The notes under the pieces are model-generated. The model saw nothing but the letters and a program-made list of their open reading frames with translations. It searched no databases and had not been told where the DNA came from. Source: a virus. From it: a stretch of DNA of 58,659 nucleotides. This document shows positions 3,754 through 58,659 of the stretch, in pieces. Location: IMG/VR virus record IMGVR_UViG_3300006864_000001, positions 1 through 58,659 of that record, one strand, 5' to 3'. Each line of letters opens with the position of its first letter. Within the stretch, counting starts at the first letter, position 1. The translations under genes and the position numbers were made by a program.

Positions 3754-3774
3754 AAGTGTTCCTTTCGTAGGGGG

Positions 3775-3803
3775 TTCATTATAGACCATGTTTTTCACGC
3801 GAA
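3775..3803 (-). promoter_or_regulatory. Conserved promoter-like motif, copy G
   Basis: Minus strand TTCGCGTGAAAAACATGGTCTATAATGAACCCC, matching the six other copies; sits right after hairpin 3804..3835. Confidence 0.5.
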
Positions 3804-16943: not shown

Positions 16944-19900
16944 CTAGCTGGTGAACCATTCAAAGTCACCGTAATTGGAGATATTCGTGACAGCCGCATC
17001 CACGAGCTTCGTGAAATATGACATGTCGATTGATTCTTCTAGCTCCTCATCAATCCCGAACTTCAGGACGTGAGCTTCCTTCCAGAAGTGACCCTTGGTG
17101 CCGGAAGCCGCGTGGAATGCGCCGTCCTTACCCCGGAGTAGAGTGCCTCCGCCGGTTCCCGCGAGGACAGGAACGAATGCGCCCGCTCGTCCGACGAAGC
17201 GAGGCTCTCCATCGCCGAAATCAAGGTAGAGAGCAGTCGTGACAGTCTTTGTCTCAGTGAAGTCATGATAATTCAGAGGTTCCTTACTGAATAGAGTTTT
17301 GAAGACGTAAGGGTGCTGGAACTGTGCTCCGGTTGCCGTCCAAGTGCCATCGTGCTTCTTGGCGACGTAGACGGCGTCATTGACGAGACAGAACTTGGAA
17401 TATGTCTCTTCATGTTCAAAGTCGTAGCCATATTGTTGGCCGAATTCCATTACGAAGTTGACGATCTCCGGCGTTGCATCGGGGATCTTGATCGAATCGG
17501 TCTTAATATGAACGACCTTGAAGCCCTGCTTCTGGACCGCCTCTTTCAAGTCGATCATGAACAGGGCACCGCGCTTGGCGACGATGTTGTCTTTGTTACG
17601 CGGGTCACGGAACGGGTTGTCGAAGCTTGCTGATGTGAGACCGTAGACGATGTTGATTACGATCTTCAGCGCATAGGATAGCGCTGTGGCATCGTCTTCC
17701 GAATTGAGGTAAGGTTCGAGGGCACCGGAGAGCATTTTTCGAGCTGCAGTGTAATCCTTACGCTTGATGGCGATGCGAGCGGCCTTGAGATCTGCGAAAT
17801 TCTTCGTATAAGGACCGAATAGATCCAGCAGTTCAATCGACGTCGGGTGCATTGACGCAACGTCCAGCACGGCGACGTTTGAGTACATGCCAGGTTCGGC
17901 ATAAACATAGCCGCCCTCGCCTGTGATCTCACCCTTATACTCGCTCTTCCCGAATCCGTACGTATACCCCGGAAATAGCTCTGATAGATCTGTGTAGTTG
18001 AACTTCTCCTGCGGTCGCCTGTCGTCACCGAATATGATCCTCGCTGTGAGTTTCTGAGTGGTGTCGTTGACGGACATGCCGGCCATGTCTGCCAGGATCT
18101 GACGCGCTACGAAATCCTGCTTGCGGTCCTCGAAGACCTGTTCGGTTGTGATGACGTCGTTTGCGCAGTAGTCGAGCACATCAACCCACAAAGGCTCATC
18201 GACTGGACAGTCCCAGGGATGTCCGAGCTCCTTGTGGTTGAGTCCGAGCTCGATTTGGAATCTCTTCAGACCCTGCTTCTTGCTTGAGAAGTCGTAAATA
18301 TCGGCATACGACAATCCATACGCATCGCCGAACATCGACCCTTGCTCGCCATTGATGATCCGCTGGCTGAGTTTGAAGAGGGCCTCGTTGCTGTACCCCA
18401 TCACTCGAGCGTACAAAATATGGTTGTCGTACTTGCGGTTGTTGAATCCCACGAGCTTGAACTTGCAGAGATCCTCGATAGCAGGGCCGCTAGGATTGAG
18501 CATTTTGACGACGTTGGCATCGCCCGCGTACTTCCAGCACACCACGAAGAGATTTGGAAATACCTCAACGTCGTAGAACACAAGCCGTTCGTCCATCGGC
18601 TCAGGCTCTACCGACTTCTGAGCTGACTCCGACGCGAACTTCATGGCCATGACCGTCTTGACGCAGTACAACGAATGGTTCGTCGAGTTGTTGGCGAATG
18701 CCAGAATTCGCCCGCGCATGTCTGTCACGTCGTACGGAAGGCCGGAATTGAACGCGTCTTCGAGGATTTTCCAGATGAAGTCAACGCTTGACTTCGTTCC
18801 CGGATGAATTTCCTTCCGGAGGTTTTTCAGGATCAAAGCCCGCAAACCCTGCTCACTCTGGATAACTTTTGAATCGAGCATCTTCTCTTCCTTGATCGGC
18901 AAGCCTCCGGTGATGAGGGCGACTGGAATATCATTGCACTTGGTCAGCTTGCGTCGAAGTGAGGCTTCTCCCGTGAAGATTTTGACTTCGATTCCTTCGG
19001 CAAAGACACGACCAAGTTTCGAGACATCTCCATCATACAGGTAATGAAGGTGTATTCCTGCCTCGCCCTTACTGAATTCTGCATACGTTGCTGGCCAGAG
19101 GCTAGCTGCCTCAAGGTTTTTCTCGAGACTTTTAGCACCATTGTCTCCTTTCAGGTCAAAATCTATAACGACGTGCTGCTCGCCAGGCTTGACGTAGTGA
19201 ATCTTAGAGGTGTCAAGCTCTGCGAGCGTCGTCTTAACATTAGACCATTTCCGACCAGGAGTTTCATCCTCATTGGCATACTGCGCCGGCATATCAGCCA
19301 GCAGAGTATCGAGCAGGGAAGTCTCGACGTCCATGACTAGTGACGGCTCAGACTTGATCATCATAAGGTTAGGTCCTAGCTTATCGTGCTTGAATCCGGA
19401 GAACCAGCTGCGAATAAGAACGCCGTCGACACGCGCTCGCTCTTCGAATTTGTCGAAGTAGTTCCGCAATTCATCACGAAACTTAGACCGGTTAAGCGTC
19501 CAGTCGTAACCGCTTTCCTCACAGAACGCTTTGTATAGATTCCAGGCCTGAAGGAGCGTAGTGCCGTCTTGCTCCTTGAACAGGTCAAATTGTGACAGCA
19601 TGAAGTTATAGAATATGTCGCTTCTGAGGATCATATCGACAGGTCGATAAGTCGAGTAGTAGTTCTTTCCTAGTCGACGATATAGACGCAGGCAGTGATA
19701 TGCAATTGCGCCGAGTTCGAATCCAATTTGCGCCGTTGTTGCCGCATATTCTTCCGCCGGGATTTTTTCGCCCGTGGGGTGTACGTCGATCAAGCGCCTG
19801 ATGAGACCCGATTTTGCATCCGTAATGCGAACCGACTGGTTAGAGCCGATAAACAAGAACGCAAATATCTTGCTTGTGTAGGTGGTCTTGTACTTCTCGT

Positions 19901-20660
19901 TGATGACCAAATCTTCGTGGGATATGATCGAGTTAAGACGAGTGTTATCTTCGATCTTCGACAAGTCACCATCATGCTGAATTGCAACGAGCGGATTACC
20001 CCTAAACGCTTCCGTGGCAAACGGATTATTCGCGGTAGTTATAGCTTTCGCGTCGAACGCGGCGTAGTAACCGACGAACAACTGCTGCAGAATATTTAGG
20101 AACGTCGACTTGCCTGTCCCGGCCTCACCATACAACACGAAGAATTTCTGAATATGCCTAGAGTCGCCTGCTAGTATTGCACCGATTCCCCATTCGAGCT
20201 TACGACGCTCTTCGACAGAATATAGCACACTCATCAGACGATCGTACGCCACGATCGATCCATCTTCGATGGAATACGGCAAACGCTTTGAACTGTAATC
20301 CGCCTTCCTTGGCGGCGTATTTGCGAAGGCTAGCTTCGCGTCTAGATGATGGTTCGAATCCGGCAAGTTTCCGCAATAACTGCGAAATTCCTGCCATAGC
20401 TTGCTCCTGTAGCTCCCGAGAGTCCGAACGTGGACCGACACATCCGGACTCTCGAGTTCGTCAGCACGCTTGTAGAGATCGGCGTCAAGCAGTCGTTGGA
20501 CATCAAATTCATCCGTTGACCACAGGCCCGCTTCTTCATCCCAGATTGCATAGAAAGAGCCACCGCGAACCATCAGGTCGGACGAGCGGCGAACCGTAAA
20601 GTCTGGGTAAACCTCGACTCCACTCTTCGTCACCCGGTCTCTGACCTGATAGAAGTCCAT
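16944..20660 (-). CDS. Fusion replicase: SF3 (D5-like) helicase + AEP primase-polymerase + family B DNA polymerase with 3'-5' exonuclease
   Basis: 1238 aa. Walker A YGEAGTGKST. AEP motifs VVIDFDLK and EAGIHLHY. Exo I FYDVEVF, Exo II GFNNRKYDNHIL, Exo III YCANDV. PolB motif A LDVASMHPT, motif B KIVINIVYG, motif C HIKTDSI. Confidence 0.85.
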   Translation of the reverse strand: MDFYQVRDRVTKSGVEVYPDFTVRRSSDLMVRGGSFYAIWDEEAGLWSTDEFDVQRLLDADLYKRADELESPDVSVHVRTLGSYRSKLWQEFRSYCGNLPDSNHHLDAKLAFANTPPRKADYSSKRLPYSIEDGSIVAYDRLMSVLYSVEERRKLEWGIGAILAGDSRHIQKFFVLYGEAGTGKSTFLNILQQLFVGYYAAFDAKAITTANNPFATEAFRGNPLVAIQHDGDLSKIEDNTRLNSIISHEDLVINEKYKTTYTSKIFAFLFIGSNQSVRITDAKSGLIRRLIDVHPTGEKIPAEEYAATTAQIGFELGAIAYHCLRLYRRLGKNYYSTYRPVDMILRSDIFYNFMLSQFDLFKEQDGTTLLQAWNLYKAFCEESGYDWTLNRSKFRDELRNYFDKFEERARVDGVLIRSWFSGFKHDKLGPNLMMIKSEPSLVMDVETSLLDTLLADMPAQYANEDETPGRKWSNVKTTLAELDTSKIHYVKPGEQHVVIDFDLKGDNGAKSLEKNLEAASLWPATYAEFSKGEAGIHLHYLYDGDVSKLGRVFAEGIEVKIFTGEASLRRKLTKCNDIPVALITGGLPIKEEKMLDSKVIQSEQGLRALILKNLRKEIHPGTKSSVDFIWKILEDAFNSGLPYDVTDMRGRILAFANNSTNHSLYCVKTVMAMKFASESAQKSVEPEPMDERLVFYDVEVFPNLFVVCWKYAGDANVVKMLNPSGPAIEDLCKFKLVGFNNRKYDNHILYARVMGYSNEALFKLSQRIINGEQGSMFGDAYGLSYADIYDFSSKKQGLKRFQIELGLNHKELGHPWDCPVDEPLWVDVLDYCANDVITTEQVFEDRKQDFVARQILADMAGMSVNDTTQKLTARIIFGDDRRPQEKFNYTDLSELFPGYTYGFGKSEYKGEITGEGGYVYAEPGMYSNVAVLDVASMHPTSIELLDLFGPYTKNFADLKAARIAIKRKDYTAARKMLSGALEPYLNSEDDATALSYALKIVINIVYGLTSASFDNPFRDPRNKDNIVAKRGALFMIDLKEAVQKQGFKVVHIKTDSIKIPDATPEIVNFVMEFGQQYGYDFEHEETYSKFCLVNDAVYVAKKHDGTWTATGAQFQHPYVFKTLFSKEPLNYHDFTETKTVTTALYLDFGDGEPRFVGRAGAFVPVLAGTGGGTLLRGKDGAFHAASGTKGHFWKEAHVLKFGIDEELEESIDMSYFTKLVDAAVTNISNYGDFEWFTS

Positions 20661-22082: not shown

Positions 22083-22955
22083 TCAGATCCGGATTACGCC
22101 GTCGACATTGAAGTCGAGGAGGATGCTGGCCTCTAGCCCGTTAACGAACTCACGAGCGCTTTCGTTGTACCGATCGTAAAGACCGAAGTCAACGAAGCCG
22201 TCACCAGTTTCGCTGTCCCTCTTCCAGCCCACGACCTGACCGGACTGCGTACGCTCCAGACCGAGGGACTCATAGATCTCGTTCAGAAATATGTAACCGT
22301 AGGCGTTAAGACGGTTGTTCGCCCACTCCTGCTGACTGCGCAGGAATATGTGATTGTACTCCGCCGTGTTGGTCCAGTTACGCGAAGTTGCGTCGAAGAA
22401 TCGCGCGTATGGTGACGGGATCTGATCACTCAAATCGATGACTTCGCCGGTCTCTTTGCCTTCGGCGTCAAATATGCGCATCTTCTTGACACCGCGATAG
22501 AGCTCGAGTTCCTTCTCCTCACCGATCTCGTCCTGAACGCGCTTGCGGTAGGCCTTGTAGCCCGCGTCGAGGACGCCATACGCTGCAACGAGTGCGGACT
22601 GACGCTTGAGCATGATGCCGTGGCCAGCCAGCACGCAGGATATGGATACGGCACCGAGAACGATTGCTGGTCCGTAGTTCTTGGCGAGCTCGGCGCCGGC
22701 CTCGATCCAGATTTCTCCGGTCTTCTTAGCAAGCTCGTTCTTGGTTAGCTCCTGACCGCCATCATTGGTTAGCGTGTCAACACGCTCCTTGGCGGAACTG
22801 GCGATGCCCTGAGACTTGAGAGCCGCCTTTCCGACGAAAATCGCGGTCGCGACGAAACCGACTACGCCGGCGCCCGTCAAGATTGTTGGTGCATTCTGCT
22901 TCAACGCACCTCGCACGGAGCCTAGAGCTCGCGTACTGAGTTTCGAGATGTTCAC
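22083..22955 (-). CDS. Membrane-anchored protein (DUF6353-like), paralogue of 26256..27071
   Basis: 290 aa, GTG start with a TAAGGA RBS. NAPTILTGAGVVGFVATAIFVGKAALK aligns with NSPTILSGMAVAGVVGTVVLAVKATPK. Confidence 0.6.
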   Translation of the reverse strand: MNISKLSTRALGSVRGALKQNAPTILTGAGVVGFVATAIFVGKAALKSQGIASSAKERVDTLTNDGGQELTKNELAKKTGEIWIEAGAELAKNYGPAIVLGAVSISCVLAGHGIMLKRQSALVAAYGVLDAGYKAYRKRVQDEIGEEKELELYRGVKKMRIFDAEGKETGEVIDLSDQIPSPYARFFDATSRNWTNTAEYNHIFLRSQQEWANNRLNAYGYIFLNEIYESLGLERTQSGQVVGWKRDSETGDGFVDFGLYDRYNESAREFVNGLEASILLDFNVDGVIRI

Positions 22956-25897: not shown

Positions 25898-26248
25898 TTA
25901 GCGGGGCTTGGAAACGAATCGCTTCAGGTCCTTCGGGACGCGGAAGGCAGCGTTTAGTATGGCGATGGCAGCGACTGCGCCAAGGACCACACCAGCGCCA
26001 CATGCCGCGGCTACGATGACCGTGTTAGTGACTTTCCTGGGCTTGGCCATGGGTGGCTCCTTATCAGGTGGATTGGGGTTCATTATACCCCTTGTAATTC
26101 TCGCGAGTTCGCGCCGAAGCTTTGCATGCTGCGTCTTTGGGAGGGGCTTTCCAGTGAACCGCAAATATGCACGTCCGACAATCCGCGTGATGATGTACGG
26201 CCAGATTAGCCAGAATATGAATGCCCCAACGGTCGGGAACAGCTTCAC
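25898..26248 (-). CDS. Membrane protein (two TM segments); start uncertain
   Basis: Only the 3' third of ORF 25898..26707 looks coding (FPTVGAFIFWLIWPYII..., VIVAAACGAGVVLGAVAAIAIL). An alternative start is MAKPRK at 26050, which has an AAGGAG RBS. Confidence 0.4.
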   Translation of the reverse strand: MKLFPTVGAFIFWLIWPYIITRIVGRAYLRFTGKPLPKTQHAKLRRELARITRGIMNPNPPDKEPPMAKPRKVTNTVIVAAACGAGVVLGAVAAIAILNAAFRVPKDLKRFVSKPR

Positions 26249-26255
26249 AATCCAG

Positions 26256-27071
26256 CTAGAGCTTGGAGTACGCCTCGATTGGAAGACCAGCGTATCCCAC
26301 AGCCAGACACGGGCGGTTGTCTGCAGAGATGTGGCTCGAGAAGACAATCTGGACCGTATGCTCGATGTTGAATCCAAGTGCATCGCCGAGAGTTGTCGAA
26401 TCCAGCCCCAGAAGTCTCCAGAACTCGTTGAGGGAAGCATACAGGTCCTGAAATATGCTCGCGTTGATGTCATTCGCGCAACGCCGGATCGTCTCTGCGT
26501 CACTTTTGAAATACCGACCTGACAACGTCTCGTAGCATAGTTGATCACCCCCGCTGGTGATGATGACCTGCGAGTCCTTGACCGGATTCTCCTCGATGTG
26601 CCTCTGCACCACCGCATCGTGGACCTTCCCCGCTTTGGTGACGCCGATCTGCTTGACGACCTCGTCCTTGTATTCCCGGAAAGCTGTGTCGGCGAGGGTA
26701 TAGGCACCCAGCAGTGCCGCGTTGCGCCTCAAGCCGATCTGGTTCGCGCCGATGATGCAAGCGATGGTTGCTGTGCCGGAGATTGCGGCTGGCAAATATA
26801 GCTTCCAGGTTGCCTGTACGATCTCCTTACTCGTTAGAGGAACATAATCGTCGACAGGGATGCCTTTTGTATGTGCATCTGCCTGAGCTTCAGTCCAGAC
26901 GTTCTTCGAGATCTCTGCTTCGCTGACGGAAACCGTAGCCTTCGGAGTCGCCTTGACCGCTAGGACAACAGTACCGACAACACCGGCCACGGCCATTCCT
27001 GAGAGAATCGTCGGCGAATTCATGCCGATCGAACGCGCGATTCGACGCGCTAGTATTGGAATTTGCATCAT
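26256..27071 (-). CDS. Membrane-anchored protein (DUF6353-like), paralogue of 22083..22955
   Basis: ORF 26256..27191; start at MMQIPILARR (GGAGAA RBS). Confidence 0.6.
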   Translation of the reverse strand: MMQIPILARRIARSIGMNSPTILSGMAVAGVVGTVVLAVKATPKATVSVSEAEISKNVWTEAQADAHTKGIPVDDYVPLTSKEIVQATWKLYLPAAISGTATIACIIGANQIGLRRNAALLGAYTLADTAFREYKDEVVKQIGVTKAGKVHDAVVQRHIEENPVKDSQVIITSGGDQLCYETLSGRYFKSDAETIRRCANDINASIFQDLYASLNEFWRLLGLDSTTLGDALGFNIEHTVQIVFSSHISADNRPCLAVGYAGLPIEAYSKL

Positions 27072-27175
27072 TTCTCCATGAATTTGACTAGCTTGTCGAA
27101 CTTGGAAATCGCTTCCCAGAACCTGTCGGCGTCGTGGTCTGCTACTTCGACGTCCATCTCGACTGAGAATTTCAT
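27068..27175 (-). CDS. Tiny acidic protein (35 aa)
   Basis: Read by eye: MKFSVEMDVEVADHDADRFWEAISKFDKLVKFMEK; overlap-coupled at both ends. Confidence 0.3.
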   Translation of the reverse strand: MKFSVEMDVEVADHDADRFWEAISKFDKLVKFMEK

Positions 27176-27312
27176 GACACTTCGTACCCATCCCAGTCGA
27201 TGAGACCGTTCAGGTACGCCTCGGATAGCGCGTAGCAGCCAAAATGCTCGTCGACATTTTCGCGGTTGGTTCGAAGGGCGGCGAGGCTGTCTTCATTCAT
27301 GGCGATGTACAT
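27172..27312 (-). CDS. Small protein (46 aa)
   Basis: Read by eye: MYIAMNEDSLAALRTNRENVDEHFGCYALSEAYLNGLIDWDGYEVS, with a GAAGGAG RBS. Confidence 0.4.
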   Translation of the reverse strand: MYIAMNEDSLAALRTNRENVDEHFGCYALSEAYLNGLIDWDGYEVS

Positions 27313-27364
27313 AATTGCTCCTTCATGAAACTATGAGCCCTTGTTTAAGGGCTCTGATAGCTTG

Positions 27365-27553
27365 TTACTCGTTCTCGTTCTCGGGTGCGATGGACTGCTT
27401 GACGTGGTTGTGGATGCGGTCGATGAGGACGCTCGCGACTCCGGCCAGCACGATAGACACGACTGTTGCGGTAACAGCAGCTGTGACTTCGCGCTTGCGG
27501 GAGTTGGCGGGGATTTCCTCGACGACGGTTCCTTCAACGGTATCTTCGGGCAT
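27365..27553 (-). CDS. Small membrane protein
   Basis: 62 aa with an AGGAGAG RBS, about 40 nt downstream of promoter-motif copy A; TM helix AAVTATVVSIVLAGVASVLI. Confidence 0.55.
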   Translation of the reverse strand: MPEDTVEGTVVEEIPANSRKREVTAAVTATVVSIVLAGVASVLIDRIHNHVKQSIAPENENE

Positions 27554-27583
27554 GTGAATCTCTCCTAAAATACGGTGACGGGT

Positions 27584-27612
27584 TTCATTATAGGCCGTGT
27601 AAAAGCTGCGAG
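27584..27612 (-). promoter_or_regulatory. Conserved promoter-like motif, copy A
   Basis: Minus strand CTCGCAGCTTTTACACGGCCTATAATGAAACCC, followed by an RBS and ATG. Confidence 0.6.
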
Positions 27613-27613
27613 G

Positions 27614-27775
27614 CTAGATGGGCTTGGTCTCCTTCAGCTTCTCGGTGAACTGCTGAATGGACGGCGTTACGGCCTTGGCGACAGCGGCGCACACGAGCCT
27701 GGTCGCGTAGATCGAAACTACGACCTTGATTACAGTCTTCGCTTTGATTGTGATGATTATCTTTTCTGTGTACAC
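27614..27775 (-). CDS. Possible small protein (53 aa) downstream of copies B and C
   Basis: Read by eye: (V)YTEKIIITIKAKTVIKVVVSIYATRLVCAAV...; weak RBS. Confidence 0.25.
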   Translation of the reverse strand: MYTEKIIITIKAKTVIKVVVSIYATRLVCAAVAKAVTPSIQQFTEKLKETKPI

Positions 27776-27887
27776 GACGTTACTCACTTTCTAGAAGTTA
27801 AAATAAGAAGCCAAGTCGTGAACTTGGGTGCATCTTCGTACTCCTCATGGGAGTCCAGTCGTGAGCTGGAATGCGGCTATGTACTTC

Positions 27888-27916
27888 TTCATTATAAGCC
27901 GTGTAAAAGCTGCGAG
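27888..27916 (-). promoter_or_regulatory. Conserved promoter-like motif, copy B
   Basis: Minus strand CTCGCAGCTTTTACACGGCTTATAATGAAGAAG. Confidence 0.55.
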
Positions 27917-27999
27917 CTTATAATGAAACCCACATAATCGTTAACTCCTCTAAAGAGGTGATCGACCTTCCCTAAAGGGATGATCGCGATTATATGGGC

Positions 28000-28028
28000 T
28001 TCATTATAGGCCGTGTAAAAGCTGCGAG
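28000..28028 (-). promoter_or_regulatory. Conserved promoter-like motif, copy C
   Basis: Minus strand CTCGCAGCTTTTACACGGCCTATAATGAAGCCC; abuts the stop of 28030..28407. Confidence 0.55.
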
Positions 28029-28029
28029 C

Positions 28030-28407
28030 TTATTCTGATACTACAGCCTTACCCAACTTCTTGAAAATGCGGCCTTTTACGTCAGGAAGTTTTCCAGCCA
28101 AATTTTCTGAAATTCTAGCTGGAGAAACTTTTAGTTCACGTGCGGCTTGTCCCTGACTAGCGTAAATAATTCCCGTAGTCATGTCCTGAATGATGTTCCC
28201 CGGATCACCCAGAGCTTCCACGAACACTTCAACCGTTTGCTTAGACTTCCAAGTAAGAACCTGAAACTGACGAACATTGGAAAGGGACGTCTTCGGTGCT
28301 ATAAGCAGCGTTACTCCAGCGCATACTGCTCCAGTTATCACGCATGAAATGTAAATTCTCTTGTTTTCGTCGAAGTACTTTTTGATTTTTTCAAGATGTG
28401 TTTTCAT
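28030..28407 (-). CDS. Membrane-anchored protein with a C-terminal NUMOD1-like HTH
   Basis: 125 aa. TM helix IYISCVITGAVCAGVTLLI, then IYASQGQAARELKVSPARISENLAGKLPDVKGRIF, which resembles the NUMOD1 pattern. Confidence 0.55.
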   Translation of the reverse strand: MKTHLEKIKKYFDENKRIYISCVITGAVCAGVTLLIAPKTSLSNVRQFQVLTWKSKQTVEVFVEALGDPGNIIQDMTTGIIYASQGQAARELKVSPARISENLAGKLPDVKGRIFKKLGKAVVSE

Positions 28408-28476
28408 TTTGCCCTCGAGTTCTCTGACTGAAATATGAAAACCTTAAGCCCGTGTTAGGGGCTGTTGGATTAACTG

Positions 28477-28650
28477 CTACTTAGTAATCTTGTTCTTTCG
28501 GTTGCGAAGGGTGCGAATTCCTTCAACACTCCAGTCGTAGCCGAGCTTGCCGATTCCGTAGACGCCATATGATAGGGCGACTCCGGCAGCGACGAGCACG
28601 ACAACTTCTTGAGCGCTGATTTTATTAGCTTGCTCTTCGGTTTCGTCCAT
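28477..28650 (-). CDS. Small membrane protein (57 aa)
   Basis: Read by eye: MDETEEQANKISAQEVVVLVAAGVALSYGVYGIGKLGYDW... AAGGAG RBS about 12 nt after copy D. Replaces the spurious ORF 28470..28763. Confidence 0.5.
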   Translation of the reverse strand: MDETEEQANKISAQEVVVLVAAGVALSYGVYGIGKLGYDWSVEGIRTLRNRKNKITK

Positions 28651-28670
28651 GACGTTCTCCTTAGTAGGGG

Positions 28671-28699
28671 TTCATTATACCCCATGTAAATCCTGCGAG
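28671..28699 (-). promoter_or_regulatory. Conserved promoter-like motif, copy D
   Basis: Minus strand CTCGCAGGATTTACATGGGGTATAATGAACCCC. Confidence 0.6.
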
Positions 28700-28800
28700 A
28701 CAAACTCTTAGACCCCACGTAAAACAGTACCCCGTGTCTGCAATGGAGGGACATAGCAGACACGGGGTACTGGTTCGAGGGCCGCGGTTAGGCGGTGGTG

Positions 28801-29106
28801 TCAGATCTTGATCTTCGGGATGAAACTCAGGCCTTTGGAGGTGATCACGTTGGCCTTCTCAAATCCGAGGATCAGAAGTACGCCGACGATACTGCCGCCC
28901 ACGGAGAGCATCGTGTCTGCGCTCAATCGGTTAGGTGCATCGGTAGCTTCATCAAGCTGCCGAGCCTCGACGAGCACTTTCAAGTTGCTCACCATGGTGG
29001 TGTATTCTTCGGTATCTGGGTTCTGATCGCTCATCAATGAGATGACGCGAGTGATCTCATCTTCGAGATCTGAGGGTGTATCGTTCTTGGATTCGCGATT
29101 AAACAC
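28801..29106 (-). CDS. Membrane protein (C-terminal TM helix)
   Basis: 101 aa, GTG start, with an AAAGGAAAA RBS directly after copy E. Confidence 0.6.
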   Translation of the reverse strand: MFNRESKNDTPSDLEDEITRVISLMSDQNPDTEEYTTMVSNLKVLVEARQLDEATDAPNRLSADTMLSVGGSIVGVLLILGFEKANVITSKGLSFIPKIKI

Positions 29107-29126
29107 GGTTTTCCTTTCGGTTAGCT

Positions 29127-29155
29127 CTCACTATACGCCGTGTTTTTCTCGCGAA
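29127..29155 (-). promoter_or_regulatory. Conserved promoter-like motif, copy E (divergent, TATAGT)
   Basis: Minus strand TTCGCGAGAAAAACACGGCGTATAGTGAGAGC. Confidence 0.5.
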
Positions 29156-45965: not shown

Positions 45966-46298
45966 CTACGGAACCTTCTTAGAGAGCTGGTACGCAGTAT
46001 TTCCCGCTATTCTGTACACTACGACCGTTCCGACAACAGCGAGTGCGATTTTAGCGGCTTTCCTACCATTCACTTGATGTCCAGCGATAATTGTACTCGA
46101 AGAACTTTCTTTGCCTAGCTTATCGATAGTGCTAAGCGCGGCTTTCTTTCCGGAGATCACAGCAGACGAGCTAAGTTTAGCTTCGTGCCTACCGCTCGAA
46201 CCTTTTTCCTCTTCAGTGGTGCTCCGATTGTGAACACCCCACTTCATGCCCCTGATGCCATGGTGAGCGAGGAATTCGTCAACTGTTTGTTCCGACAT
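45966..46298 (-). CDS. Virion-module protein with an N-terminal HHG(I/V)(R/K)GMKWGV motif
   Basis: 110 aa; MSEQTVDEFLAHHGIRGMKWGVHNRS; C-terminal hydrophobic segment. Confidence 0.6.
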   Translation of the reverse strand: MSEQTVDEFLAHHGIRGMKWGVHNRSTTEEEKGSSGRHEAKLSSSAVISGKKAALSTIDKLGKESSSSTIIAGHQVNGRKAAKIALAVVGTVVVYRIAGNTAYQLSKKVP

Positions 46299-46332: not shown

Positions 46333-46917
46333 CTAACCGGACTTTGTTTTCAGTTTGGCGGATTTCCGGTTTTCTTTAGCGATAAGATCGAGGTGTCGCT
46401 GTATTTCACTCTGCTTGTAGTGCAAACCTTCGACGGTTTTAGCCTGATGAAGAGAATTCAACTGGCTAATTCGCATAGCGCCATTTGTTGCGAGAATAAG
46501 CAATGTTACTTTTTTCGCGAGAACTACATTTTTTGTCTGAACGTGTTGAGAGGCAAGATTCCCACCAGCCAGAATCAATGCGGTTTCCGCAGCCCCTCTA
46601 GTCACCACCGATCTAGTGGCTATCCGATAGGACTTCTTGTCATACGCTCGTCTAGCTTCGGGCGAAAGTTTCTTGTACTCGAAACTTGGATCTCGTTTGA
46701 TGGCCTTGTCGTACTGCTTTGCTCCAGCCCAACCCTTCAGACCGTAGCCAGCAACGACATGACTTCCACTTTTCTTATCTAGTTTCGCGTGTACCTTATC
46801 GAGGCTTCGCTTCAGATCTGCCGAGGTTTCCGCAGTAGATTTTTCCTCGTGTACGCCCCACTTCATGCCTTTGACGCCATGATGAGCAAGGAATTCGTCT
46901 ACACTTAGTTCTGGCAT
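46333..46917 (-). CDS. Virion-module protein with an N-terminal HHG(I/V)(R/K)GMKWGV motif
   Basis: 194 aa with a GAGAGGAGGTGA RBS; MPELSVDEFLAHHGVKGMKWGVHEEKS. Confidence 0.6.
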   Translation of the reverse strand: MPELSVDEFLAHHGVKGMKWGVHEEKSTAETSADLKRSLDKVHAKLDKKSGSHVVAGYGLKGWAGAKQYDKAIKRDPSFEYKKLSPEARRAYDKKSYRIATRSVVTRGAAETALILAGGNLASQHVQTKNVVLAKKVTLLILATNGAMRISQLNSLHQAKTVEGLHYKQSEIQRHLDLIAKENRKSAKLKTKSG

Positions 46918-48976: not shown

Positions 48977-49717
48977 CTAGCCTGCTGCGGCTTTCGCTGC
49001 CGCCTTAGCTGCGGCTTTCGCTAGAGCCTTGTCGATCCCCTTAGCAGCGTACTTGTTTGCGTAGCTGGTAGCTTGTTGTTTCCCAACGTTACCGCCGATA
49101 CCAAGGAGCTCGTTCGCGAACTTCTTGCCAGCGCTGACATGCTCCGGATTTAGTCGAGCATGTTGCGATTCGAGATTCTGCCGCTCAACTAGAAGCTTCA
49201 GATCCTCATTGCTGAGTGCAGCCGTACCGTGCTTGCCGACAACCCTCTTGAGTTCTGAGGCTCTTGCGTGATCTTCCGAAACGTTGGATCCCGAATCACC
49301 ACGATTCTTGCGGACGCCCCACTTCATACCTCGGACGCCAAAGTGTTCGATGTAATCACGAGTCGAGCGGTCTAGCTGCTCGTAAGCAATCTCGGCTTTC
49401 TGAACCTGAACTCGATCTTCGACTATTGTGTCAATCCCGAGCCGAGAAAGAAGTACGTCGAGGTTCCCGTGCTTCAGCGATCCATCAGGACCCCAAGTGT
49501 CAGGAATCTTGTCTTCCATATGAAGAGACTTCGCCCTGGCGATAATATGACGCCGAATCCCGGATCCGCTATCGCCGGCGTTCTCGCCTCTGCCGACAGA
49601 CATGATCGCGTCTTGCAGATCTGTGCCGTTCCTGACATAAAATGATCCGTCAGGCATCGCTATGCCCATCTTCGCAAACATCTTGCGCTGGGCAGCCGTG
49701 ACCGACGCCATAGTCAC
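48977..49717 (-). CDS. Virion-module protein with an AMPDGSF motif and an internal HFGVRGMKWGV motif
   Basis: 246 aa. MGIAMPDGSFYVRNGTDLQDAI... is followed by DYIEHFGVRGMKWGVRKNRG. Lys/Ala-rich C-terminus. Confidence 0.6.
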   Translation of the reverse strand: MTMASVTAAQRKMFAKMGIAMPDGSFYVRNGTDLQDAIMSVGRGENAGDSGSGIRRHIIARAKSLHMEDKIPDTWGPDGSLKHGNLDVLLSRLGIDTIVEDRVQVQKAEIAYEQLDRSTRDYIEHFGVRGMKWGVRKNRGDSGSNVSEDHARASELKRVVGKHGTAALSNEDLKLLVERQNLESQHARLNPEHVSAGKKFANELLGIGGNVGKQQATSYANKYAAKGIDKALAKAAAKAAAKAAAG

Positions 49718-52264: not shown

Positions 52265-52487
52265 GAGTTCACCCCCAGTTACAAGGACTTTCGGAGTAGT
52301 TACAGATTGGCCCAGTAAGAGGCGCGGGAACATCTTGTGCCTGCAGTGCTGGGGTGCTGGCGAAGCTAGCGACGAAACGGGGTCGGCAAGTCACTAGCCC
52401 AAGGGAAATCCCGCTCCTCCTACTGAGGCAACCTGTAACCTCGCATGAGAAACATGGACTCTAGTAGAACCTACCAAAGGAGAAGCT

Positions 52488-52697
52488 ATGGCTATGCCCA
52501 CAGAATGTCAAACTCCTGGCGCGCAGTTCCACACAATCACCAGCGATGAAAAGCTACTTGTGTCAGTCGACTTTGGGAGACGTCTCAACCTCAGCGAGGA
52601 AGAGGCCGTCCTTCTGGAGACGAATGTCCACAACGCTTTGGAGTTGGTGCTTGCCCGGTACTACACCAAGAGTTACCGTTCTGGCCGAACCACGTAG
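52488..52697 (+). CDS. Hypothetical protein; the only plus-strand gene
   Basis: 69 aa with an AAGGAG RBS 5 nt before the ATG, followed by its own rho-independent terminator. Confidence 0.55.
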   Translation: MAMPTECQTPGAQFHTITSDEKLLVSVDFGRRLNLSEEEAVLLETNVHNALELVLARYYTKSYRSGRTT

Positions 52698-52717
52698 ACC
52701 CGAAGCCGGTTAAGAGT

Positions 52718-52745
52718 TAGAGCCCGACATGGGCTCTAATTTTTT
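52718..52745 (+). terminator. Rho-independent terminator of the plus-strand gene
   Basis: Stem tagagccc / gggctcta with loop gacat, followed by attttttc. Confidence 0.7.
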
Positions 52746-52756
52746 CGTGTGTCAAG

Positions 52757-52805: not shown

Positions 52806-52922
52806 CGGCTCCAGGTGGGCCGACCTTCGGCCAATTTTTCCGCCGGGGCATTTTTGTGGACAGCGGCGATGCATAGGGGGGGAGCTGTTTTGCGATAGGC
52901 CCCCCCTCTACCCTTCAACGAC

Positions 52923-53183
52923 TCACACTGTTGCTGCGATAGGATTAGTCGCCTTAGTGTACAGTCCATTCACGTTAAGCTTGCAGATCTCATCGATCGC
53001 TTGCTCAATCGCTAGTGCTTGATCGGCTTCGGACAAGTCAAACGATGTATTGACAACACGAGCGAGGTAGCCAGGTGTGTCGTACCCGTGTGCACGATCC
53101 CATTGCCACCATTCATCGTAGTTAGTCCACGGATTCCACGGGTTGTCGATCGTCGTCAAGAGATGTTCTTCGCCGTCATCCAT
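52923..53183 (-). CDS. Conserved small phage protein of unknown function
   Basis: 86 aa with an AAAGGAGG RBS; TTIDNPWNPWTNYDEWWQWDRAHGYDTPGYLARV pattern. Confidence 0.6.
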   Translation of the reverse strand: MDDGEEHLLTTIDNPWNPWTNYDEWWQWDRAHGYDTPGYLARVVNTSFDLSEADQALAIEQAIDEICKLNVNGLYTKATNPIAATV

Positions 53184-55862
53184 CTAGCCTCCTTTACGAT
53201 GAAGAGCAGCATCTAGTGTGCTGACTGGAATACCCAGTGAATCGGCTACTTCGGCCTGCGTAAAGCCAGACGCGAGCCGTGCTTCTGCTAGCGCTAGCTT
53301 AGAAGGAGTTACTTCTAGAGTGGCGCGAGGTGTTGCTAGTTCTCTAATTCGTTCCGTGTTTGCGTTCTCGAGAATGCTACGCAGCCTGCTAGTTGTAATA
53401 GCGCCAGCCTGTATAGCAGCCCATTGTTGATCGGTTATGTGGATCTCTTGCTTCTTAGCGCCAACGCGATCGCGAGCAGTGTTTAGTGCCTGACCTTTAA
53501 TCTTTTTAAGGTTGGCGTTCTCCATGCCCGGGTTGTCCCTGATCTTCGCTGCCACCATGGCATTGGCTAGCAACTGCGCTTGCCGTTCTAGTGGCTTGTT
53601 CTTGAGCGCTAGATTAAGGGCGCTATTCAGTTGTGCCACTTCATGCTTGTACGTTAGCGCTGCACTATTCGAGTAATCGATGCGACCTGTAGCGAGTGCT
53701 TCTTTACGAGCAGAGTTGGCCAACGCTTTCAACCTGTTAGAGTGGTTAGCGTAGACCTCTTCTATGGGCATGCCTGACGACAAGGTGTGCGCGTTGTTAG
53801 TCTCGAGCAAAGGCTTGGACGTTGTCAACTTAACAACTGTTTTGCCAGTGTTCTTGTTAACATAACTAGCGCCAGTCTGGACATAGATCTTCTCACCAGA
53901 CTTGGGGTCCACGGATCCGCCTTGTGAGGCCTTACGCAGAACCTTCTCAGGAACCTTAATTGCAGCGTTACCTGATCTGGAGATGATAGTTGATGCGCCT
54001 GCTAGACGACCAGACTTGCCTCGTCCTTGATAGGTCTCTTTGAGCGAGGCTATGCCGTTGTCTACGTATGACTGCCGATAGTTAAGATTGTGTTTCTCGG
54101 CATCGATGACGACCATCGAATGACGAACGGCTCGAGCGAGCTCGTCATTCCTGGCGCCCTTGATTGTCATATCCGTGATAAGGTTTGAGACGTCGCCCAT
54201 TTGCTGCTGCTTAGCTCTTGCCGTCATCGGTACCATACCGGGGTACTCTTTATACGCCTCTTTAGGGTCGAAGTTTTCTAGCCCTTTAAGTGGCGATGTA
54301 GTTTTTAGTTCTCGCTTATCGTTGGGAATGACGAGCACTGTGTCCCCGTCGAAGTCCGCACCAGATAGGCGTTCTGCTACCTTAGGATGAATACCGATAG
54401 CGTCACGAGCTTCGCCGATAGTTGATCTTGATTCGGCATGCTTATTATTTACTCGCACTTCAGGGATCTCAAAAGTTCCCCCATGCGGGAAACGCACCAA
54501 AGCGACAGTAGTACCGTTCCTGAAGTTGGGCGCGTAAACCTCATTTTCTTTCAGCGATTCGATAGGTAGAATAACTCGAGTCGCTTGACCCGGCAAAGCC
54601 GCAGCCTTAAGATGAACAGACGCAGACTCTGCCCCATCAGCAAAAGACTCCAAGAGTTTCTGCTTGACAACGGGGTTTGTCAGCTTTGATATTTCATCGA
54701 ACTCATCTACTCTTGATTTGTAGGCGAGATCGAGTTGTCGTTTTGCTAGACCGGTACTCTGCTTCGCCAAGACCTGACTTGACAGTGAACGAGACCAATC
54801 GTTCCAATCGCCTTCTTCGTTAACGACATTCATCGGTGACTGATGTTGTTTACCATCTTTACCGAGATACGTTTTCTGCCGAACAGTTGCGCCGAACGGG
54901 TTCTCTTCGTCCGACTGCTTCTTCATGGTGTCGAGCTTGTTGCCCGTGTCATGCTTGTTCGTGTTGAACTGAAGGTCGACTCCTGCTGGGAGACCATCTT
55001 TGTACATGGCCATACCTTTAAGGTAATGTGTGCCATCGACAGCGATTCGAACTTGTGCATATCTGGATGTCCCAAGTGAAATATCGGGAACACCAGGACG
55101 AACATAGATAACGCCGTCGGCATTTGTGCCGCCTTGTTCTGCGTAGCGAATTCCGATTCTCTTGGAATCCACGTTGACCGGAGGTTTGACACCGATATAT
55201 GAAAGACCACCATCTTCGCTGTATGCGGCAACGGTCTTGATCTTGTCTGGGTTCTTTACGATGTCCACATATTTAGTTCCTGGTGGAGCAAGAACTTTAA
55301 TTGTGGTTTTCTTATTACCGCCAACCCCAACGTTCGGCGCCTGAATTTTGTGAACTTCGTAACCTCGCTCTTGAAGCAAAGCGACGGCGGTTGAAAGTTT
55401 AGTCTTGCTGATCGCTAGATGATTTTCGGTTCCTTCGCCGATATCGAGATAGCTGCCATCAGCAAGCTTGTCCTTAAGCATGTTCGACGTCGACATCAGA
55501 ACATTGCGCTTCTCCGTAAGCGCTGGATTAAGCAAAGAACGAACCGAAGACTCGTTGATGCCCATTCGTTCGCCAATGGCGACATTGGACATACCTTTAT
55601 TCTTCAGCCGTAGCGCTTGTGCGGCATCGGCTTTCTGCGTTTCGTTCTTAGCGATCGATTTGGCAGCACGAAGTTGCGTGGTAGTGATGCCAAGACCTTT
55701 GGCGATATTGGTGTCTGTCACGCCTTTGGTTTTGAGCTCTGCTACGTAGCCCAAGAAACCGCGATTATGTTCTTGTGGTTCGAGACCCGACCCCCACGGA
55801 TATCGGCCAGATCGGCGAAGGACGCCATAGTGAAGCAGTTCGTCAGCAGCAGCGTCAGCCAT
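53184..55862 (-). CDS. Candidate single-subunit two-barrel RNA polymerase (YonO / RdRP-like) with N- and C-terminal HTH domains
   Basis: 892 aa. LKGMAMYKDGLPAGVDLQFNTNK (beta-like barrel), VALVRFPHGG and SGADFDGDTVLVIPND (DxDGD metal loop). HTHs at VTDTNIAKGLGITTTQL, MSNVAIGERMGINESSV and FTQAEVADSLGIPVSTL. N-terminal LLHYGVLRRSGRYPWGSG. The CDS itself is certain; the confidence refers to the function. Confidence 0.6.
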   Translation of the reverse strand: MADAAADELLHYGVLRRSGRYPWGSGLEPQEHNRGFLGYVAELKTKGVTDTNIAKGLGITTTQLRAAKSIAKNETQKADAAQALRLKNKGMSNVAIGERMGINESSVRSLLNPALTEKRNVLMSTSNMLKDKLADGSYLDIGEGTENHLAISKTKLSTAVALLQERGYEVHKIQAPNVGVGGNKKTTIKVLAPPGTKYVDIVKNPDKIKTVAAYSEDGGLSYIGVKPPVNVDSKRIGIRYAEQGGTNADGVIYVRPGVPDISLGTSRYAQVRIAVDGTHYLKGMAMYKDGLPAGVDLQFNTNKHDTGNKLDTMKKQSDEENPFGATVRQKTYLGKDGKQHQSPMNVVNEEGDWNDWSRSLSSQVLAKQSTGLAKRQLDLAYKSRVDEFDEISKLTNPVVKQKLLESFADGAESASVHLKAAALPGQATRVILPIESLKENEVYAPNFRNGTTVALVRFPHGGTFEIPEVRVNNKHAESRSTIGEARDAIGIHPKVAERLSGADFDGDTVLVIPNDKRELKTTSPLKGLENFDPKEAYKEYPGMVPMTARAKQQQMGDVSNLITDMTIKGARNDELARAVRHSMVVIDAEKHNLNYRQSYVDNGIASLKETYQGRGKSGRLAGASTIISRSGNAAIKVPEKVLRKASQGGSVDPKSGEKIYVQTGASYVNKNTGKTVVKLTTSKPLLETNNAHTLSSGMPIEEVYANHSNRLKALANSARKEALATGRIDYSNSAALTYKHEVAQLNSALNLALKNKPLERQAQLLANAMVAAKIRDNPGMENANLKKIKGQALNTARDRVGAKKQEIHITDQQWAAIQAGAITTSRLRSILENANTERIRELATPRATLEVTPSKLALAEARLASGFTQAEVADSLGIPVSTLDAALHRKGG

Positions 55863-56936: not shown

Positions 56937-57242
56937 TTATGTGGGACTATCCGCCCAGATTCTATTGCCGCATGAGCACTCCCATCGATGCGTGTGCAAT
57001 CCGGCGTCGTAACCTTTATAGACGGTGTGCGAATGAGAATGCGTTGAGGGCTTCACTGGTTCAGCAGGCTTTGCGTTGGGATCTGGGTTTGGATTAGGTC
57101 GTCTGTGTTTTGGCTGTTTGATGACAAAACCAATCGGTTCGATAAACTTAGAGAATGAGCTCAAAATGAGCAAGCATTCTCTATCTTCTATTATAGGCCA
57201 TGTAATTCCTGCGAGGACTCGACCATGGTCGACTATGTACAA
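56937..57242 (-). CDS. Possible His/Cys/Pro-rich protein; 5' end doubtful
   Basis: ORF with a TTG start and no RBS. Promoter-motif copy F lies inside its 5' third, so the true start (if any) is probably downstream of 57180. Confidence 0.3.
   Translation of the reverse strand: MYIVDHGRVLAGITWPIIEDRECLLILSSFSKFIEPIGFVIKQPKHRRPNPNPDPNAKPAEPVKPSTHSHSHTVYKGYDAGLHTHRWECSCGNRIWADSPT
57186..57215 (-). promoter_or_regulatory. Conserved promoter-like motif, copy F (head of the nuclease/RNAP operon)
   Basis: Minus strand CTCGCAGGAATTACATGGCCTATAATAGAAG. Confidence 0.55.
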
Positions 57243-57270
57243 AGTAGGACAAAAGGGTGTGTGCCACTTT

Positions 57271-57297
57271 GTGCCACTTTTGTTTTAAAAGTGGCAC
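57271..57297. promoter_or_regulatory. 27-bp palindromic site (11-5-11), GTGCCACTTTT half-sites
   Basis: gtgccacttttgttttaaaagtggcac; an extra direct half-site lies at 57261-57270. Confidence 0.7.
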
Positions 57298-57308
57298 AGT
57301 GTTTTTAG

Positions 57309-57668: not shown

Positions 57669-58659
57669 TCATGCGGCAGATCGAAGGTATTCGGTTTGAT
57701 TGAAGTTCCGTTTAGCACAGAGTGACTTCCAGATAGCCACATCAATCATCGCCGAACTTCTAATCACGTAGTACTTCAAATCTGTGAACGATGTATTTAG
57801 GCGATCAGTTCGTCCTTTCGCTTGCTCGAACATTCTGTAAGAGTACGTCAGCGAATAGAAAACCATCGCGTCCGTCTCAATGCAATTCCAGCCCTCTGCC
57901 CCTGAGGCGTATTGTACTAGATACACCCACTCAAGCTGATCGGGAATCGGCTCATGCTTGTGCCCGTTCCATTCGCCGATGTGCGTATCAAGCTGCCTGA
58001 GTATCTCGAGTTCGTAGTCGTAGTTGTAGAAGATGATCAACCTAGGATGCTTGATCATCAGATCCCGAATCGCCAAGATTCTGCTAAGATCGCTATTGAC
58101 GATCCTCCGCATCAAGGCGAACAATTCGCTCACATGCCGGATCGGTCGATTCTCGAACGGATTCCATCGTCTTCGCCAGACAGTGTCAAAAAGCTCTCTG
58201 TCGTATTCCGCGAAAACGTCCACAGTATGCCGGGTCGTGTGTTTCTGGAACGGCATCTCCACAAGAATACTGCGGAGTTCCCGTACAAGCCGCTCCGTCC
58301 CAACATACCGATCCACTTTCGGGTACTTTGCGAAACGCGAGAAAACGACATGCTCGCGCAAGAACTCGGTTCTGTTCTTGTAGAACCCGTTTGCGATGAA
58401 GACTGGAATATAGTCGAGCCAGGTGTCCCCAGGTGTAGCACTCAAGAGCACCCACTGATTCTTCTTGACTATCTTCAGGAACGCCTGTACCCATACGCCC
58501 GATCCCACCACTCTCTGCTCGTCGAAGATGAAGAACGCATTCTCAACGTCCTCATACTCACCCAGATTGTTCCAGCTGTCCACCTCCGGAAATATCGCTA
58601 GCAGTCTTGCCTCGGCCTGCCAGTCACCACTATCCCGCTTCTTTGCTGTAGTGATGACA
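57669..58659 (-). CDS. SF2 (SNF2/DEAD-like) helicase, 3' part (frame open at the window end; continues at 263..1)
   Basis: ORF 57669..58583 extends without a stop to 58659. Motif II FIFDEQRVVG, C-terminal lobe YASGAEGWN, motif VI QAKGRTDR. Confidence 0.85.
   Translation of the reverse strand, partial: VITTAKKRDSGDWQAEARLLAIFPEVDSWNNLGEYEDVENAFFIFDEQRVVGSGVWVQAFLKIVKKNQWVLLSATPGDTWLDYIPVFIANGFYKNRTEFLREHVVFSRFAKYPKVDRYVGTERLVRELRSILVEMPFQKHTTRHTVDVFAEYDRELFDTVWRRRWNPFENRPIRHVSELFALMRRIVNSDLSRILAIRDLMIKHPRLIIFYNYDYELEILRQLDTHIGEWNGHKHEPIPDQLEWVYLVQYASGAEGWNCIETDAMVFYSLTYSYRMFEQAKGRTDRLNTSFTDLKYYVIRSSAMIDVAIWKSLCAKRNFNQTEYLRSAA
58537..58659. repeat. Direct terminal repeat copy 2
   Basis: Identical to nt 1-123. 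Confidence 0.95.

Follow-up and report, generated by a model that had tools for sequence, protein, structure and literature searches.

The 58,659-nt stretch of viral DNA analysed here (positions 1 to 58,659 of IMG/VR virus record IMGVR_UViG_3300006864_000001, hereafter the window) belonged to a siphovirus whose genes almost all lie on the minus strand. Positions 53184..55862 (minus strand) held an open reading frame (ORF) with an ATG start, the sole one in the ORF listing there, encoding an 892-aa protein of the PHROG 4291 family. The gene product is very probably a compact single-chain RNA polymerase (RNAP), kin to the catalytic core of cellular RNAPs, with two predicted double-psi beta-barrels and helix-turn-helix (HTH) modules at both ends of the chain. 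An 86-aa ORF abutted its stop codon, and a copy of a 32-nt promoter-like motif headed its operon.

Predicted catalytic core and fold of the 892-aa protein

The first-pass annotation, made from the sequence alone, had pointed to three segments recalling the catalytic core of multisubunit RNAPs. All three were found in the translation at the residues it gave: LKGMAMYKDGLPAGVDLQFNTNK (aa 281-303, nt 54954-55022), VALVRFPHGG (aa 453-462, nt 54477-54506) and SGADFDGDTVLVIPND (aa 500-515), with the DFDGD of the last at nt 54342-54356 as it had placed it (all minus strand). The predicted first barrel, beta-subunit-like (aa ~236-349, nt 54816..55157, minus strand), was delimited from the strand pattern of an AlphaFold2 (AF2) model and from conserved residues, and carried GGTNADGVIYV (D249), R272, K282-G283 and GLPAGVDLQFNTNK (P292, D296, K303). 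GLPAGVDLQFN of the window protein resembles GTPVDIVLNP of the bacterial beta subunit. The predicted second barrel, beta-prime-like (aa ~427-513, nt 54324..54584, minus strand), showed six strands in the AF2 model and contained VALVRFPHGG and the metal-binding loop GADFDGD.

When 105 diverse family members, 43-77% identical to the query, were aligned, no variation was seen at K282, G283, P292, R457, P459, H460, G501, A502, D503, D505, G506 and D507, nor at R272, and D249, D296 and K303 were conserved in at least 90% of the sequences. The R-x-P and DxDGD signature of the two-barrel superfamily, represented in Rpb1 by R446, P448, D481, D483 and D485 (PMC2919709), was present as R457, P459, D503, D505 and D507. 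On conservation, K282, R272, D249, D296 and K303 are candidate counterparts of the two lysines and one aspartate of the beta-like barrel (Rpb2 K979, K987 and D837; beta K1065, K1073 and D814). The invariance of the catalytic residues supports an active enzyme. A further near-invariant element was the N-terminal peptide HYGxxRxSGRYPWGSG (aa 11-26, nt 55785..55832, minus strand), in which G13, S18, G19, R20 and G24 were invariant in the same alignment. It was disordered in the AF2 model, where the predicted local distance difference test (pLDDT) score stayed below 50 over aa 1-27, and may be an interaction or packaging signal.

Two tandem HTH modules resembling sigma region 4 and HTH_23 preceded the barrels (aa ~45-115, nt 55518..55730, minus strand). 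Pfam recognised HTH_23 (4e-8) and Sigma70_r4 (best stretch aa 89-115) at aa 78-115, and the AF2 model displayed HTH pairs at aa 50-88 and 93-133 (helices 50-57/61-88 and 93-100/104-133). A third HTH closed the protein (aa 853-891, nt 53190..53306, minus strand), seen by Pfam at aa 858-889 as Sigma70_r4_2 (1.5e-7) and HTH_3 (1.1e-5) and in the model as helices 853-864, 869-876 and 880-891. The two N-terminal HTHs and the closing third one of the first-pass annotation were confirmed, and a Pfam scan of representatives found HTHs at both protein ends in ten out of ten diverse relatives.

The AF2 model was built on 104 homologues and reached a mean pLDDT of 80.8 and a predicted template modelling (pTM) score of 0.66, with beta-rich regions at aa 236-349 and 427-513 between helical parts and HTH units at both ends. 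All 24 Foldseek matches in the PDB with E < 1e-4 were single-chain two-barrel polymerases. QDE-1 came first (E 3.7e-10), followed by P74-26 gp62 (E 4.5e-8), P23-45-type gp64 (E 1.9e-7) and the maize and Arabidopsis RDR2 (E 7.9e-7 to 3e-5). Chains of Pol IV, Rpb1, archaeal A' and bacterial beta-prime formed the next tier at about 1e-3, and nothing besides two-barrel polymerases was retrieved at E <= 1e-3. A search of the viral structures in BFVD concurred, its matches including P23-45 A7XX94.

Sequence profiles gave fainter signals. Pfam RdRP (PF05183) matched aa 494-593, beginning at the catalytic loop, with E 0.0015 and 17.7 bits against a gathering cut-off of 23.8; the same family stayed below threshold in all ten diverse relatives, five of which scored 15-22 bits. 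PDB sequence searches, run with the protein and with a 104-sequence profile, returned marginal matches to the HTH region and chance matches, none of them to the core, and NCBIfam returned sub-threshold sigma-like HTH matches only. Neither a T7-type RNA_pol match nor a palm/fingers/thumb fold appeared in Pfam, NCBIfam, PHROGs or the Foldseek matches. A reading as a primase or structural protein was rejected, as it had no profile or fold support and the phage replicase already has a primase-type region. The first-pass proposal of a single-chain two-barrel polymerase with flanking HTHs was upheld by structure prediction, in which Foldseek retrieved two-barrel polymerases from the AF2 model, by the invariant catalytic residues and by profile searches of Pfam, PHROGs and NCBIfam, which gave no confident match to an unrelated family.

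Relatives of the polymerase and its downstream ORF

The match to PHROG 4291, a family annotated as 'RNA-dependent RNA polymerase', spanned the full length of the protein (E = 0, profile positions 7-907 of 909). Full-length homologues were found by tblastn in 250 isolate phages at 38-58% identity, the closest isolate-phage protein being at most 58% identical, with hosts in Arthrobacter, Gordonia, Streptomyces, Microbacterium, Curtobacterium, Rhodococcus, Lactococcus and Faecalibacterium. A nucleotide search of 50,697 phage records gave no match to the window. A word-indexed protein search collected at least 8000 candidate homologues, and HMMER with the core alone (aa 130-840) yielded at least 1545 clusters at 50% identity (E <= 1e-3). 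Homologues in GTDB genomes were confined to eight contigs of metagenome-assembled genomes (MAGs), binned as Scandinavium, Saccharibacteria, Clostridia, Ruminococcus, Roseburia and Peptostreptococcaceae, and were uninformative on the host. Most isolate records name the protein 'helix-turn-helix DNA-binding domain protein' and RefSeq names it 'RNA-dependent RNA polymerase'; both names are probably misleading.

The first-pass annotation had not recognised this HTH-flanked architecture as already described, a claim that fell, since PHROG 4291, RefSeq and Koert et al. (bioRxiv 10.1101/842583) already name it. The latter authors described the same protein with HTHs at both ends, a DxDGD loop and an HHpred probability of 95.7% to PF05183, and proposed it as a possible RNA polymerase and as the signature of a supercluster comprising Arthrobacter AM/AU/AW, Gordonia DJ, Rhodococcus CC, Microbacterium EL and Streptomyces BI phages. 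The same supergroup takes in Lactococcus 1706-like and Faecalibacterium phages (bioRxiv 10.1101/842583), and a protein of Lactococcus phage 1706, a supergroup phage, had been listed among YonO-like proteins by Ruprich-Robert and Thuriaux in 2010 (PMC2919709). The window protein shares with these proteins (e.g., Scap1 gp55 and Mudcat gp94) full-length homology, HTHs at both ends and the DxDGD loop, and its phage shares with theirs the same genome plan, in which the polymerase is the last large gene before the right end, after helicase, endonuclease and exonuclease. The published account is computational and leaves promoters unmentioned, and the window phage has a GC content of about 52%. The window protein adds a divergent new member to a family that sequence analysis had already brought to notice.

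The first-pass label 'YonO-like' held for the fold and the catalytic signature but not for profile-profile similarity, which was not significant. Comparing 105 family sequences with 58 YonO-family sequences in hhalign gave an alignment confined to the catalytic barrel, with a probability of 2.5% (E 0.019), and the 104-sequence profile against YonO alone gave 1.4%. The register of the alignment nevertheless paired R457/P459/H460 with YonO R492/P494/H495 and D503/D505/D507 with D535/D537/D539. Like the window protein, YonO of SPbeta is a single chain with two barrels, of about 840 aa, with R-x-P-H and D-x-D-G-D in register. It is a proven DNA-dependent RNA polymerase for the SPbeta late genes, which form one operon with one late promoter, and how it locates that promoter is unknown according to its paper (PMC5467207). 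Unlike the window phage, SPbeta lacks the 32-nt motif.

The non-virion RNAPs of Thermus phages, P23-45 gp64 and P74-26 gp62 (PDB 8F72, 8F5M), are likewise single-chain two-barrel enzymes of siphoviruses (Foldseek E 4.5e-8 to 1e-6, target-normalised TM 0.36-0.44), but they have about 600 aa against 892 aa and no detectable sequence similarity to the window protein. QDE-1 and RDR2 gave the best structural match, and PF05183 its sub-threshold match from the catalytic loop; these are, however, eukaryotic RNA-silencing enzymes with 11-12% identity in the structural alignment. The virion RNAPs, namely the P23-45 tape-measure fusion gp96 and the crAss-like phi14:2 gp66, are fused to structural proteins or packaged, whereas the window protein is free-standing with HTHs. 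By fold and catalytic signature, the window protein falls within the two-barrel superfamily, in a sequence family of its own apart from YonO, the Thermus-phage enzymes and the eukaryotic RNA-dependent RNA polymerases.

The 86-aa ORF (52923..53183, minus strand; PHROG 4303, no Pfam family) abutted the polymerase stop codon. Of the 82 loci with enough flank, drawn from all lineages, 81 had an ORF of this type as the next one downstream of the polymerase on the same strand; a Lactococcus phage was among them, as were Clostridia MAG contigs and the portal-fusion contig described below. Its AF2 model reached a pLDDT of 90.7, and searches of the PDB gave no fold match (best E 2.5) and no sequence match. 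The 86-aa protein is probably a partner of the polymerase.

Two relatives, P0125 (1789 aa) and P0127 (1809 aa), carried only the polymerase core (window aa 117-847) at their C-terminus, with the HTH regions lost and RHPHGG and GADFDGD intact. The persistence of an HTH-less core in both implies that core and HTH modules are independent units. At the start of P0125 stands a Pfam Phage_portal domain. The P0125 gene (locus L119:1866-7235, Logan SRR12949875) is part of a head-gene module, where it has a 533-aa ORF, taken as the terminase, on one side and the protease and capsid genes on the other, and it is followed by a homologue of the 86-aa ORF. The contig has a GC content of 68.6% and represents a phage otherwise unrelated to the window. 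This arrangement suggests that, in at least one lineage, the polymerase forms part of the virion, and recalls the tape-measure-fused polymerase of P23-45 (PMC10770324). Both fusions differ from the window protein in having the core at the end of a chain of about 1800 aa instead of a free-standing enzyme with HTHs.

The 32-nt motif and the genome plan

The promoter-like motif of the first-pass annotation proved real and longer than reported. Its 29-nt pattern, allowing at most three mismatches, had six matches in the window against none in 100 shuffles. The extended 32-nt consensus CTCGCAGrAwTTACAnGGyyTATAATGArACC had eight copies in the window, all on the coding strand, where none were expected, with position weight matrix (PWM) scores of 20-47 bits against a shuffle maximum of 8.9, and was the top repeat family of the genome. 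One copy, CTCGCAGGAATTACATGGCCTATAATAGAAGA (57184..57215, minus strand), headed an operon of a small ORF, the endonuclease, the exonuclease and the polymerase, 1.3 kb upstream of the polymerase start and downstream of a hairpin with a 14-bp stem (57269-57299). Six copies identified by PWM (29124-29155, a weak one, 28668-28699, 27997-28028, 27885-27916, 27581-27612 and 26076-26107, minus strand) clustered at 26076..29155 between the tail and replication genes. Among them, the three checked (28668, 27581 and 26076) were followed, about 25-35 nt downstream, by a Shine-Dalgarno sequence and a small gene's ATG, as was a weaker copy, TTCGCGTGAAAAACATGGTCTATAATGAACCC (3772..3803, minus strand, 24.5 bits).

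A degenerate copy lay on the opposite strand at 52440..52471 (plus strand), its 10.7 bits being near noise level. The same region (52440-52750) contained the only plus-strand gene noted there (52488-52697, 69 aa), with AAGGAG before it and a terminator-like hairpin and T-run after it. This ORF faces the polymerase module, and homologues occupied the same place and orientation in loci L038 and L039.

The motif was shared across the phage lineage. Scanning IMG/VR with an exact pattern of 21 specified bases retrieved 34 stretches, 30 of which held syntenic homologues of window proteins (25-69% identity), and bases left unspecified in the pattern were conserved as well, chiefly the six bases GArACC right after TATAAT. 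Corresponding motifs were found in the isolate phages Scap1 of Streptomyces (yTCGCAAnTTTTACAnGCnnTATAGTGAGACC), Mudcat of Arthrobacter (CGCGwAAATTACAnGGGCTATAAT) and CHPC971 of Lactococcus (TTCACAnGTTTTACAnnnnCTATAGTAGAAAG), each with multiple copies, all on the coding strand. The core WWACA-N5-TATART-R occurred 8, 2, 7 and 11 times in the four genomes (the window and these three isolates) and was absent from the control phages SPbeta, Lactococcus sk1 and Streptomyces phiC31. Around 80 homologous polymerase genes (779 kb), 39 matches fell on the coding strand against two on the other strand. In 15 related IMG/VR loci, a copy lay 892-1064 nt upstream of the polymerase start, mostly as the TATAATAGAAGG variant. 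Two apparent sub-classes could be distinguished in the window and IMG/VR loci L037-L110, with copies at the polymerase operon mostly ending in TATAATAGAAGG and many others in TATAATGAGACC or TATAATGAAnCC; they may reflect different timing or initiating nucleotides.

The geometry of the motif placed TTTACA 5 nt and CTCGCA 14 nt from TATAAT. This is not the layout of a sigma-70 promoter, whose -35-like and -10-like hexamers stand 16-19 nt apart; the motif had neither a conserved hexamer at 17 nt nor a TGn extension, and a sigma-70 consensus scan around the polymerase gene was not above chance. Annotated host promoters in sk1 had the usual 17-nt spacing. In Gordonia phage Vardy, a 50-bp motif present five times had been noted in a genome announcement, where its TATAAT was taken for the -10 element of a sigma-70 promoter and no connection with the polymerase was drawn (PMC9671010). 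New here are the 32-nt motif with its strand bias, its variants in related phages, its geometry and its occurrence alongside the polymerase gene, as well as the near-constant 86-aa neighbour and the two HTH-less relatives. The motif may be the promoter of the polymerase, and its analysis lends strength to the first-pass suggestion that promoter recognition may be built into the enzyme.

Positions 1-123 and 58537-58659 were identical (123-bp overlaps), so that the window represents a circular assembly with a 58,536-bp unit; the helicase gene (57669-58583) spans the junction. Gene order resembled that of Scap1, Mudcat and CHPC971, running from helicase, endonuclease, exonuclease, polymerase and 86-aa ORF to the genome end, and onward from the end through a small ORF, an HNH endonuclease, endolysin, large terminase, portal and a protease-capsid fusion. 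Tail genes, many small genes, a large primase-polymerase replicase and an annealing protein came thereafter. No tRNA was found in a scan of the window.

The genome-end element GGTAGAGGGGGGG-CCTATCGCAAAAC-AGCTCCCCCCC-TA-TGCATCGCCGC...AAAAATGCCCCGG (52841..52913, minus strand), a putative cos site, was conserved in all 14 relatives compared. In each of them, a G-run/C-run hairpin with a TCGCAAAA-type loop, followed by TGCATCGCC...AAAAATGCCCCGG, lay 3' of the 86-aa ORF. In Scap1 the element spans the physical ends, with the genome end about 14 nt after TGCATCGC. The hairpin element is therefore probably the cos site by analogy, and, going by the Scap1 end position, some 320 nt would separate the end of the polymerase gene from the right end of the packaged DNA. 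The hairpin loop TCTCGCAAAA by the genome end resembled the upstream half-site of the motif.

Several other genes were observed, those of the replicase, the DUF6353 proteins and the glycosyltransferase region on the minus strand. The replicase (16944-20660, 1238 aa, PHROG 4210, with DUF5906 and Pox_D5 domains) probably corresponds to GP55 of Lactococcus phage 1706, a 'four-in-one' helicase-primase-polymerase characterised in 2025 (PMC12205980). Paralogous DUF6353 proteins of 290 and 311 aa (22083-22955 and 26256-27191) flanked the early-gene region. A family-2 glycosyltransferase gene (13389-15059) adjoined two large genes of unknown function (8546-10498 and 11097-12278), which have an 87-nt repeat in common (72% identity) and are probably paralogues. 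A 50-nt coding segment recurred three times at 72-84% identity (46228-46277, 46847-46896 and 49308-49357) in small genes near the terminase and portal, which suggests a small paralogous gene family.

Proposed transcription by the polymerase and alternative explanations

Taken as a whole, the data are probably best explained, by a modest margin of confidence, by a two-barrel DNA-dependent RNAP that reads the 32-nt motif as a promoter through its HTHs, together with the 86-aa partner. The active site would lie between the beta-like barrel (aa ~236-349) and the beta-prime-like barrel (aa ~427-513), with R457-x-P459-H460 preceding a Mg2+-binding loop D503-F-D505-G-D507. Most likely, the polymerase would transcribe phage genes from DNA without a host sigma factor. 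The fused HTHs would bind the upstream half yTCGCAG..TTTACA of the promoter, TATAAT would melt and the barrels would initiate just downstream, so that promoters would head small early/middle genes and the polymerase's own operon. This mechanism draws its support from the fold together with the invariance of the catalytic residues, from the modules for DNA binding, from the co-occurrence of motif and polymerase and from the form of the motif, which follows the phage lineage rather than the host. RNA synthesis on DNA templates, the pairing of motif and enzyme, the division of labour among the HTHs and the role of the partner are inferences.

Several points weigh against this explanation. A perfect TATAAT is also the -10 consensus of housekeeping sigma factors, and promoters with a -10 element only are common in Actinobacteria. 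No motif preceded the structural operon of roughly 22 kb, which leaves late transcription unexplained; no second repeated motif that might serve as a late promoter was found in the window, and the conserved element before the structural genes looks like cos. Foldseek TM-scores were low (about 0.3), with superposition limited to the core, and sequence links to characterised enzymes were weak (17.7 bits for Pfam RdRP, 2.5% for YonO in hhalign, no PDB sequence match). A literature search found no biochemical, structural or transcriptomic study of any family member. A copy of the motif also precedes the gene for the polymerase; if the phage enzyme alone reads it, the first molecules would have to come from elsewhere, either from a virion-packaged enzyme or from basal host transcription. 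The HTH-less relatives, one of them portal-fused, led to a more elaborate version of the same explanation, in which a self-sufficient, sigma-independent RNAP reads the 32-bp promoter with its own HTHs, the 86-aa protein is an obligate partner and a virion-carried enzyme primes the first round of transcription. This fuller version is tentative and somewhat doubtful.

A first alternative accepts a genuine two-barrel DNA-dependent RNAP but assigns the motif to the host RNAP, with TATAAT serving as a housekeeping-sigma -10 element and a phage regulator binding the upstream boxes; the phage enzyme would instead transcribe the motif-less late operon from a single entry site near the joined ends. The perfect TATAAT, already read as sigma-70 -10 in Vardy (PMC9671010), fits this scheme, as do the structural genes without an upstream motif, and a motif-driven polymerase operon is explained most simply if the host enzyme reads the motif. 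Joining of the ends brings the polymerase gene directly upstream of the late operon, where the genome-end hairpin loop TCTCGCAAAA, with its resemblance to the motif half-site, could be the entry site; YonO likewise uses one late promoter (PMC5467207). Yet the same non-sigma-70 geometry recurred in phages of Streptomyces, Arthrobacter and Lactococcus, and conservation ran 6 nt beyond TATAAT, as in promoters of phage-specific polymerases. The Lactococcus phage, moreover, has TATAGT without a -35 or TG extension, which would make a poor promoter in Lactococcus, and the motif was absent from sk1, a phage of the same host genus with ordinary -35/-10 promoters. We consider reading of the motif by host RNAP unlikely, while ranking it first among the alternatives.

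Another possibility, implied by the database name 'RNA-dependent RNA polymerase', is that the enzyme works mainly on RNA or single-stranded templates, perhaps producing double-stranded RNA, antisense RNA or replication primers instead of mRNA. QDE-1 and plant RDR2 were indeed the best structural matches, the RdRP family of Pfam was seen below threshold in the window protein and in five of the ten tested relatives, the gene neighbours are a helicase, an endonuclease and an exonuclease, and QDE-1 is credited with both DNA- and RNA-templated activities (PMC9508822). Such a function sits poorly, however, with a double-stranded DNA genome and with three DNA-binding HTHs fused to the core, and the replicase already has a primase-type region (PHROG primase matches and Pox_D5; for phage 1706 GP55, PMC12205980). 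The structural matches next in rank belong to DNA-dependent transcriptases, namely the P74-26 and P23-45-type enzymes (PMC10770324), and a main role on RNA or single strands appears quite improbable. Least credible of all, to the point of being nearly dismissed, is a mere HTH regulator or DNA-binding protein with a catalytically dead core: it agrees with the name in most isolate records and with the HTHs being the only parts to pass Pfam thresholds, but not with the invariance of the metal-binding aspartates and the R-x-P-H strand in the aligned family, with the retention of a core without any HTH in two fusion proteins, or with so conserved a 700-aa core, unexpected for a dead scaffold.

The preferred explanation, a phage-encoded two-barrel RNAP reading its own promoter, bears on enzymes of wider interest. 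Single-chain two-barrel RNAPs serve as models for the ancestor of all cellular RNAPs, and few have been studied (YonO, the two P23-45 enzymes, the crAss-like gp66 and QDE-1). How such enzymes find their promoters is largely open, as stated in the YonO paper (PMC5467207). The family described here is very large, includes hundreds of cultivable SEA-PHAGES isolates as well as dairy Lactococcus phages, and has recognisable DNA-reading modules. Its sharply defined candidate promoter, kept in phages of two phyla, makes promoter recognition directly testable. Should the enzyme and the 32-bp promoter form an orthogonal pair, they would provide a compact transcription tool for Actinobacteria and Firmicutes. 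If self-sufficient reading holds true, the window protein and its relatives would be the first case of a two-barrel polymerase in which a defined module for promoter recognition is built in.

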